From a virus (lineage: Duplodnaviria > Heunggongvirae > Uroviricota > Caudoviricetes), in the IMG/VR virus record IMGVR_UViG_2609459830_000005, positions 1-5,728 of that record: a DNA stretch of 5,728 nt. One strand, written 5' to 3'. This document shows positions 3,001 to 5,728 of this stretch, piece by piece (position 1 is the stretch's first letter; each line of letters begins with the position of its first letter). The position numbers were made by a program.

Positions 3001-5728
3001 CAGCCAGTCCTCCGGAGCCATCCGGAAATAATCCTCCGGCTCACCGGAGATATTCACGCAGGGAAAATATCTTTCCCCCTCCGGCGTTCTCACCACGAAG
3101 CCGCACGACTCCGCTGGCGCACATCGCCGGGCGTGCGCCAATATATTGCTATAGAGCATGAGAACTCCTGATAAAAAACCCAGCCGAAGCTGGGTCATTT
3201 CGTTGGCAATCTGTTAGTAGTGATGCAGTGAAGGAGGTAATTCTTTGTTCTTAAGTCTTAGCCATGCAGAAAGATTCGTTGGTCCGTCTGGCTCATTAAT
3301 ATCAATATCTCGCGTGTGATTGATTAAAACGTCTCTCGCCATTCCAATAACATACGAGAACTCATGACCGTAGTCGTAGCATCTGCAGGAATAGTTCGAT
3401 TGAATTTGCTTTAGCGCCGGATACAGTTCGCGGAATAATGCCTGTGAGCGGTTAGCATAATCCCATAACCATACAAGGCTGTTTGCTTCTTTTGCAGAAA
3501 GCTCGTTGGTTTTCTTCTCTTGTTTGCCAATGAACTCACCTTCAAGCGGAACGCGAGCAGCAAGTGACAGTGCTTCGGTAAACTGCTCCTCACTAATTTC
3601 TTTGTACGAACATCCAAAATGGGATTTCAGTGACGACCACATGGTGATCATCGCCTTCGCCTGTTTTTCTTTTGGCAGAGACTGACCGCGACTCATGACG
3701 AGTTGTTTAATGGCTTCCTGCTGTTCAGTGGTGATTTTCCCCAGCAATGCCTTTTTAGCTTTGCGCGGGTTAATCACATGGCCTTTAGTCCAGTACTCGT
3801 AGAGCACATCGTCACACTCTTCCTGATACTGGATTACCTTCTCGCGGATTTCAGGGCGGACTTTGTTAGGACTGATGGTTTGGAGCCAACCATTCAGTTT
3901 ACGCAAAGCAAGGCAAATCATGGTCTGCATACCGCCAACTGAAGGTATTGCGATTTCCACAATACCTTTAGCAAATCTTTGTTTTAACTTTGTAAACTGT
4001 GAAGCCCAATCCATACCCATTCCCTCAACGATAGGTTTCATTGGGGTGTACGGTTCGCCGTTGTGATTGACGACATAAAGCTCTGCGCCGTGGAATGGCA
4101 CGTTGATAGTAGATACCGCTGTTGCTATACTCATTTCGTTAGTTCCTTGGAAGTTACTGACATAGAAGCCCGATTTGTGTTCGCGCACTGTCGGGCTTCG
4201 CTATTTTTATGTCCTAGCATTCTTCTCTCCAATCAGTCCGTACACTTTTCTCAATTGATAAATAAGTTCCGTGTTGAACTGTCGACACTCTTTTTCTCCA
4301 TTTCTTTCAATCGCCTTCCTTACATCCTCTGGGAAACGAACCTTGCGTTGATACATGTCTTTTGCTTTTTCCATCTCCACTCCTTAAATAGCCTCACTGT
4401 GGGGCAATCAAAATTGTCACACCGTGCGTCATTGAAGTCAACCCCACCGTGGGGCATAATTTACTTATTGTGAATTTTTCCTGTTTGGACTAATGGTATG
4501 AGTAGAGAAGACCCTCAACTTCGGATTAGGCTTCCTGTTGAATTAAAAAAAATAATTGAAGCGTCATCAAAACAAAATAATCGTTCTATGAATGCTGAGA
4601 TTGTCACTCTGCTTGAGTTGGCGATTCGTGTTTGTCGTGATTTTGGGCCGGAGGATGGTCCTATCGTTCAGCAGTTTAAAGAACAACTAGATGCGATAAA
4701 CAGAAAATATGATAAAAGCGAGCATGAAAAACTTATACCTCAACTTTTAGAAATCATAGAAAAACAGAAAAAACAAGTAGATAAACTTATTAGCATGGTT
4801 GAAAGATCAATTCCTCTTTCAGAGGAATATAAGCAGAAATATCTTGGTGATGACAACAAAAAACCCACCTGATGGTGGGCATAATCCATTACTGCGAAAG
4901 TTTGTTAATGGAAAGGAAACCGCCAAAATTAGCCACCATGCCGCGCATCTCACACCCGCGCATGCACTTGCTGCATCTGTCCTTACGGATATCGGTGGTG
5001 GGTTTATCGAACTCATCCGCCACAGCCCCGCCCGTGTAACCACACTCATCAGAGCGGTAGGTCCACATACAGGTATTCGCCAGCATAATGCGACCGGGAA
5101 ACAGCGCTCCGTCCGTCTCCGTCGGTGTTGCCAGCACAAACGAGGCTGTCATGGCCGTCAGCTCTGACATCTGCTCCACCACCCAGCGGTCGCTCAGCTC
5201 CTGCTCCGGGTCCGCTTCCGGATTGCCCGCCACAAAATTCACCGCATCCAGAAAACGGGCATTTACGGTCTTCACCGATGTCAGATGGTTTATCATGAAT
5301 CCGTCACCGGTCGTCCAGCCCGGGTTCGCCAGAACATACTGATATCCTGCGATTTTTTCCTGCAGGGATTTCACCCGACTGGCCTGTTCATCAATCAGCC
5401 GGTTCTGCTCTGTCAGCGCCGCCCGTGTTCGTCCTTCATTATCTGAGGCTTCAGGCAGAGACATTGACGGCGTTTTATGCGCGATTTCATCTATCGTCAG
5501 TGCATACTGGCGCGCAGACTCCCTGGCCTGCTCCTGATTCTGGTACAGCGTGTACCATGCTGCAGCCCCCAGCATCACCAGTCCGGGTACGCCACCAACC
5601 AGCCCCAGCGCACCGCTCATCAGACGTGAGCCCACCGCCGTTGTACTGTTCAGCGCATTCTGGGCGGCGCTTCTGGCAGCAATATTTCTGTTCAGGCGTT
5701 CCTGTGTGGCCGCCAGACGGGCCTCTGC

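Follow-up and report, generated by a model that had tools for sequence, protein, structure and literature searches.

In phage lambda, the tail genes are arranged in the order H (tape measure), M, L and K, as an earlier note on the DNA studied here had set out. The tape-measure protein gpH starts polymerisation of the tail tube and sets tail length, and its C-terminal helix sits within the tail tip; gpM, a hexameric ring, attaches the tip to the tube, and gpL contributes an N-terminal gpV-like domain (residues 1-166) which, with gpJ, makes up the last tail ring (PMC10721106). In the lambdoid prophages of Escherichia coli O157 Sakai, deletions, insertion sequence (IS) insertions and frameshifts are typical of the morphogenesis genes and represent their normal state, and complementation of such defective prophages by co-resident prophages has been shown (PMC2669165, Asadulghani et al. 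2009). Here we describe a fusion of H to L in a stretch of 5,728 nucleotides (IMG/VR record IMGVR_UViG_2609459830_000005; hereafter the window), which is the entire contig of a human isolate, E. coli 3-267-03_S1_C1. The window comes from a strain background other than that of the Sakai prophages, and its H::L junction is not described among them. Katsura and Hendrix reportedly studied, in the 1980s, in-frame internal deletions of lambda H that shortened the tail, in which the C-terminus of H, M and L were intact and tails still formed. Those deletions lay wholly inside H, whereas the deletion found here exits H, crosses M and enters L.

The minus-strand frame that runs from position 5728 down to 4889 is open for 279 codons before a TAA stop, and upstream it runs off the end of the window. 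The earlier note had read this open reading frame (ORF) as an in-frame chimera of a tape measure and L, L-like only from the residues ARFLDAVNFV near position 5260, and our comparisons agree with both statements. The upstream piece is a gap-free match of 466 nucleotides to the middle of an HK97-type tape-measure gene of 1080 codons, includes a hydrophobic Gly/Ala-rich segment, and matches the tape-measure genes of many Shiga toxin-converting and other lambdoid phages at 99.8% identity. Its identity was 99.8% to phage YYZ-2008, 99.8% to a prophage of the O103 strain RM8385 (465/466) and 98.5% to a prophage of the O55:H7 strain USDA5905. The downstream piece is L, with identities of 99.7% to RM8385 (373/374), 97.3% to USDA5905 and about 92% to YYZ-2008. 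Because DNA identity of 99.7-99.8% links the two pieces to genes separated by 2.3 kb in intact relatives, chance resemblance is ruled out. The upstream piece is tape-measure sequence from the middle of H, residues 373-527, and not from its N-terminus.

At the protein level, two truncated Pfam domains abut in the chimera. The PF06120 profile (HK97 tape measure) is matched over positions 1-130 of 295 and ends at residue 153, and PF05100 (Phage_tail_L) begins at residue 152, with a match over positions 77-206 of 206. Tape-measure proteins of the HK97/lambda type carry PF20155, PF06120 and PF09718. In an intact relative, PF06120 is matched over positions 1-292 and the C-terminal Tape_meas_lam_C domain occupies residues 862-933; in the chimera the central PF06120 region is incomplete and the Tape_meas_lam_C domain is gone. 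The C-terminal 123 residues of the chimera align without gaps to residues 110-232 of lambda gpL, the tail-tip hub (PDB 8IYK chain L), and the gap-free alignment of the L piece to this structure (8iyk_L) covers residues 106-232. The L piece retains the final third of the gpV-like N-terminal sandwich, and its C-terminal iron-sulfur domain is complete, with cysteines at the positions of the [4Fe-4S] cluster residues C173, C182, C205 and C212 of lambda gpL (numbering from PMC10721106). Tape-measure sequence takes the place of the first 108 residues of L, the greater part of the gpV-like domain. The chimera therefore has a C-terminal iron-binding domain with its four conserved cysteines, but it has neither a full-length PF05100 domain with the N-terminal gpV-like beta-sandwich nor an L start of its own directly after M; the frame goes on upstream into H. 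Judged by its domains, the chimera would be neither a functional member of the gpL family, lacking the N-terminal domain and its own start, nor a tape measure, lacking the C-terminal half; it is a pseudogene built from both H and L.

We placed the junction by a three-way, base-by-base comparison with the intact H and L genes of YYZ-2008 and O103 RM8385. The breakpoint lies between position 5263, which is H nucleotide 1582 and the first base of codon 528, and position 5262, which is L nucleotide 326 and the second base of codon 109. The protein reads ...KTV-N-ARFLD... across the join, the N being encoded by a hybrid AAT codon. The intact H-M-L modules of YYZ-2008 (NC_011356), O103 RM8385 and O55:H7 USDA5905 have the same genes in the same order and orientation, and their flanks are 92-99.8% identical to those of the window. 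Compared with each of these three collinear references, the window is without 2,319 bp (773 codons), and the two stumps are fused in frame. The lost block comprises H codons 528-1080, which encode the C-terminal half of the protein, all of M, and L codons 1-108. When two types of M, residues 1-108 of L and residues 528-1080 of H were searched against the window with tblastn, no match was obtained (best E 0.7). With the lost length divisible by three and the phases in agreement, the stumps are read as one ORF. Collinear, near-identical flanks (up to 99.8%) with a defined block missing between them are what an internal deletion leaves behind, and the absence of M and the deletion joining the tape-measure gene to L, both proposed in the earlier note, are thus borne out. 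The flank identity of 99.7-99.8% indicates that the deletion is recent.

The join is blunt, with 0 nucleotides shared between H and L at the breakpoint. A deletion mediated by microhomology or repeats was rejected for this reason, the nearest common 7-mer, CGGTGAA, being out of register with the breakpoints. A deletion adjacent to an IS was rejected as well: no IS is present at the join, and the end of an IS66-family element in the contig of a sibling isolate, described below, lies 1,063 bp upstream, at about H nucleotide 501, and reflects a separate event. The blunt join, the lack of microhomology and the absence of a mobile element at the breakpoint point to some form of illegitimate recombination.

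We consider it highly probable that the chimera was left behind as a deletion scar by the ordinary decay of a defective lambdoid prophage, and that it does not represent a new kind of protein. The ancestor would have carried H (1080 residues, HK97 type), M, L, a cassette containing an Arc/Mnt-like gene, a small ORF and the antirepressor gene Ant, and then K, I and J. The block of 2,319 bp between the two stumps would have been lost in a single illegitimate deletion with blunt ends, and the fused ORF would be a by-product of this deletion rather than a designed protein. One deletion within one prophage explains this most simply, since the closest matches to both pieces are found in a single prophage, that of RM8385, at a distance of 2,319 bp from each other.

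Illegitimate recombination could also have occurred between two prophages, or between a phage and a prophage, with H coming from one and L from the other. Such genomes hold many near-identical tail modules (median 3 places per genome, maximum 16-18), and none of the loci examined had this pair of H and L alleles in intact form with this Arc/Ant cassette. However, both best matches reside in the same RM8385 prophage, the same spacing between H and L is found in two further references, and a simple deletion takes one event. An exchange between two elements thus appears unlikely.

The same chimera was found on a 5,615-bp contig of a sibling isolate, 3-267-03_S1_C3 (JNME01000105.1, L023), and on contigs of GCA_001286545.1 and GCA_001286385.1, which belong to another deposit set. 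The exact 40-base junction string is present in all three of these assemblies; the junction is therefore reproduced identically at the level of four assemblies. The sibling contig is identical to the window over 2251-5728, and the other two assemblies show at most 5 differences between 2251 and the end of the shared stretch (about 5548-5555). The four contigs that bear the junction end at different places and come from at least two deposit sets, the JNME/KDU-KDT records and the CYGM/CYAT records. We also looked for the junction more widely, and it was present in none of 5,426 complete E. coli genomes, none of the GTDB species representatives and none of the JGI metagenome contigs; no INPHARED phage record matched across it, and in IMG/VR it occurred only in the contig of the sibling isolate. 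A small lineage of E. coli has inherited the scar.

These results bear on whether the junction is an artefact of assembly or sequencing, in which the tangled repeat graph of a genome with several lambdoid prophages led to a false link between two contigs inside H and L. The contig that makes up the window is short and has both ends in repeated phage genes, and a large number of the other aberrant "L" proteins in the database are plain artefacts, such as L proteins fused to genes of unrelated organisms in metagenome assemblies, one from a contig with an inverted duplication, and one from an L-K-I repeat tangle at a contig end. It is because so many odd "L" proteins are of this kind that recurrence in four assemblies matters. 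A mis-join by k-mer or overlap cannot explain the same junction in four assemblies when H and L have not a single base in common there, and real genes continue in perfect register on both sides of it. We therefore regard an artefact as very improbable.

The differences between the window and the sibling contig, 103 in number, all fall inside 1251-2250, a region comprising the 3' end of I, the I-J spacer and the start of J. This divergence is either a patch exchanged with another copy of the prophage or the result of a different path taken by one assembler through a repeat.

The loss affects several parts of the tail set at once: all of M, two thirds of the gpV-like domain of gpL, and the whole C-terminal half of H are missing, and what remains of L is its outward-facing iron-sulfur domain. 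With M, the N-terminus of L and the C-terminus of H all lost, a prophage that carries the scar is expected not to make tails of its own. The defective tail anticipated by the earlier note is supported to this extent, as a prediction from the missing parts. By analogy with the Sakai prophages, co-resident lambdoid prophages could in principle complement the loss. The fused ORF is also probably not expressed.

The sequence beyond the window's 5728 end is available from positions 1-623 of the sibling contig, where H extends back to about nucleotide 501 and is then abutted by an IS66-family (ISEc22-like) element. The end of this element reads ...GCACGCTTAC, and RefSeq names the copies matching this end as ISEc22-family IS66-like elements. 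Tape-measure homology in the sibling contig begins only at about H nucleotide 501, so the first ~167 codons of H are cut off, and of the N-terminal TMP_3 domain only profile positions 94-191 of 192 remain, straight after the IS66-family end. The "gene" called there, of 478 codons, opens at an internal GTG within an ORF that is open for at least 478 codons. With the IS66-family end at about H nucleotide 501, the chimeric ORF of the sibling is without the native H start too. The IS66-family insertion is a second, independent lesion in the same gene.

Damage to the tape-measure gene was also seen elsewhere. In the complete genome of an O20:H12 strain (NZ_CP062855.1), an ISEc22-family copy also lies against a tape-measure gene, and in the reference prophage of USDA5905 (L031, 7590-10832), which is otherwise intact, the tape-measure gene is annotated as a pseudogene with an internal stop. 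The tape-measure genes of these prophages seem to be damaged often.

The open frame raises the possibility that selection maintains the chimera as a working protein, perhaps a dominant-negative decoy in which the gpL iron-sulfur domain, carried on a tape-measure stalk, poisons the assembly of tails by lambdoid phages, whether co-resident or incoming. The join is in frame, the ORF is open over at least 478 codons, the iron-sulfur domain is complete with its four cysteines, and the scar has been retained in strains separated by a few single-nucleotide polymorphisms elsewhere on the contig. On the other hand, one deletion in three joins its ends in frame by chance, flanks that are still 99.7-99.8% identical to intact genes leave too little time for selection to be seen, the native start and the upstream operon are severed by the IS66-family element in the sibling contig, and the junction is confined to the few carriers described above. 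We think it most improbable that the protein has been kept in this way. Expression of H'::'L, for instance from a promoter reading out of the IS66-family element, with interference in the tail-tip assembly of other lambdoid phages, is equally hard to credit; positive support for it is limited to the open frame and the retained iron-sulfur domain. If it were true, the chimera would be a domesticated factor of anti-phage defence or of competition between prophages.

That the ORF is a natural, unusually long L with a novel N-terminal domain, as the earlier note had allowed and as the GenBank and RefSeq product name "phage minor tail protein L" would have it, can be dismissed as next to impossible, because the upstream half is tape-measure DNA (99.8% identity, with a PF06120 match) and not an L N-terminal domain, the L profile begins only at position 77 of 206, and L residues 1-108 are absent; a search for an L-like upstream half, a separate M or an intact L start found none of them.

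Some points nevertheless weigh against a simple deletion scar. The junction is known from assembled contigs alone, and all four are short (4.3-5.7 kb). The exact intact ancestor, combining this H and L allele with this allele of the Arc/Ant cassette, was not found among the loci fetched. Blunt joins without microhomology are less common than microhomology-mediated deletions. Finally, the in-frame join and its persistence in slightly diverged strains leave room for some retained function.

Public assemblies contain other deletion chimeras, in decayed prophages, in which an upstream late gene is fused in frame to the 3' part of L: H::L in locus L026, G::L in L029 and V::L in L030. The first of these (L026, 1119-2004, on an ENA metagenome scaffold) is a putative independent H::L fusion that joins about H nucleotide 1406 to about L nucleotide 562 and has in addition a 663-bp deletion inside H; it is known from a single scaffold. 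The breakpoints differ from that of the window, and the joins in L029 and L030 contain 6-8 nucleotides of microhomology, whereas the window join has none. For the G::L join (L029, near 8330) the microhomology is 8 nucleotides, and for the V::L join (L030, about 828-848) it is 6-7 nucleotides.

Where aberrant L proteins in the database switch to L, the breakpoints seem to be clustered at about L nucleotides 245-330 (codons ~82-110), in a sample that is biased and includes several artefacts; in the window, the corresponding zone would fall immediately upstream of 5262. Four fusions, with a lambda-type tape measure, a portal protein, gpG and gpV as partners, switch to L within about 3 codons of one another, at ..TG/MAEDLQ.., and most other ends of fusions or internal deletions that lie before codon 110 also fall within codons 82-110; the end in the window is at codon 109. 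The DNA of this zone reads GAAGATCTGCAGAGCCTGGTGGGGGCC. The zone could be fragile or prone to recombination, or it could be a branch point in assembly graphs.

The features of the window are listed in Table 1. All of its long genes lie on the minus strand, which gives the order of a lambda-type tail operon read backwards. The J piece is 95-97% identical to J of O103 RM8385. In relatives, I is called at about 193 amino acids (aa), with a start at the K stop, and the length of K is the same in related loci. The hairpin that follows the L stop overlaps the 3' end of the convergent Arc/Mnt-like gene.

Table 1. Features of the 5,728-nucleotide window and the observations that identify them.
Feature	Position	Strand	Observation
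J, 5' part, host-specificity gene	1..1606	-	535 open codons, GTG start, runs off contig end; from stop-free translation
I, tail assembly gene	1847..2524	-	PF06805; listed ORF of 225 aa
K, tail gene	2422..3159	-	245 aa; JAB and NlpC/P60 domains (Pfam); appears intact
Ant, antirepressor	3214..4134	-	306 aa; PF10547 and PF10548, the N- and C-terminal domains of P22 antirepressor
55-aa ORF upstream of ant	4207..4374	-	called as a 55-aa gene in all related loci
Arc/Mnt-like ribbon-helix-helix gene	4498..4872	+	124 aa; PF03869 Arc, E 3e-7
Terminator-like GC-rich hairpin followed by T run, just past L stop	4863..4880	-	pattern scan only; also visible in the sequence
'L fragment	4889..5262	-	L nucleotides 326-699, codons 110-232 and TAA stop (4889-4891)
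Deletion junction	5261..5263	-	hybrid AAT (Asn) codon; base-by-base comparison with intact H and L
H' fragment, internal tape-measure piece	5263..5728	-	H nucleotides 1117-1582, codons 373-527 and first base of codon 528

A three-gene cassette (3214-4872) lies inside the tail operon, in the gap between L and K, and consists of the Arc/Mnt-like gene, the divergent 55-aa ORF and Ant. The Arc/Mnt-like gene is the first of the three and is convergent with L; the best match of its product among solved structures was the P22 Mnt repressor (E 0.0015). The 55-aa ORF gave no Pfam hit, and a search of solved structures returned only designed proteins, nothing usable. USDA5905 (L031) has at the same position a 57-aa ORF that RefSeq calls an "Arc family DNA-binding protein", the likeness being one of position. 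Promoter-like sites face both ways in the spacer at 4381-4497, and the layout of the cassette resembles the immI region of P22 (mnt / arc-ant). An L-to-K cassette with Ant is also present in YYZ-2008 and USDA5905, the layout in USDA5905 being L-Arc-Ant-K.

The exact 124-aa protein was found at the same position in many intact prophages, and the exact Ant protein was found between L and K in many prophages; among the matches listed in the exact-protein searches with these two proteins there were only intact prophages. Because the exact cassette proteins occur in many otherwise different prophages, with lambda-type as well as HK97-type tape measures, it acts like a mobile module. In one genome (GCA_904809695.1; L004, 10392-10877), the same block of Arc-like gene, 55-aa ORF, Ant, K and I is joined on its L side directly to a phage lysozyme gene and lysis cassette, and on its I side to sodC and type III effector genes, a heavily rearranged remnant that has kept the cassette.

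The biological weight of the finding is small; it is one more case of prophage decay by deletion and IS insertion, and there is nothing new in it beyond a mis-annotated database entry. It does have value for annotation. The chimeric product of the window, entered in the database as "phage minor tail protein L, partial", combines tape measure and L and ought to carry a pseudogene flag, and tools that score prophage completeness would count too many intact tail genes in this stretch. For the few E. coli strains in which it is found, the scar could also be used to mark the lineage.

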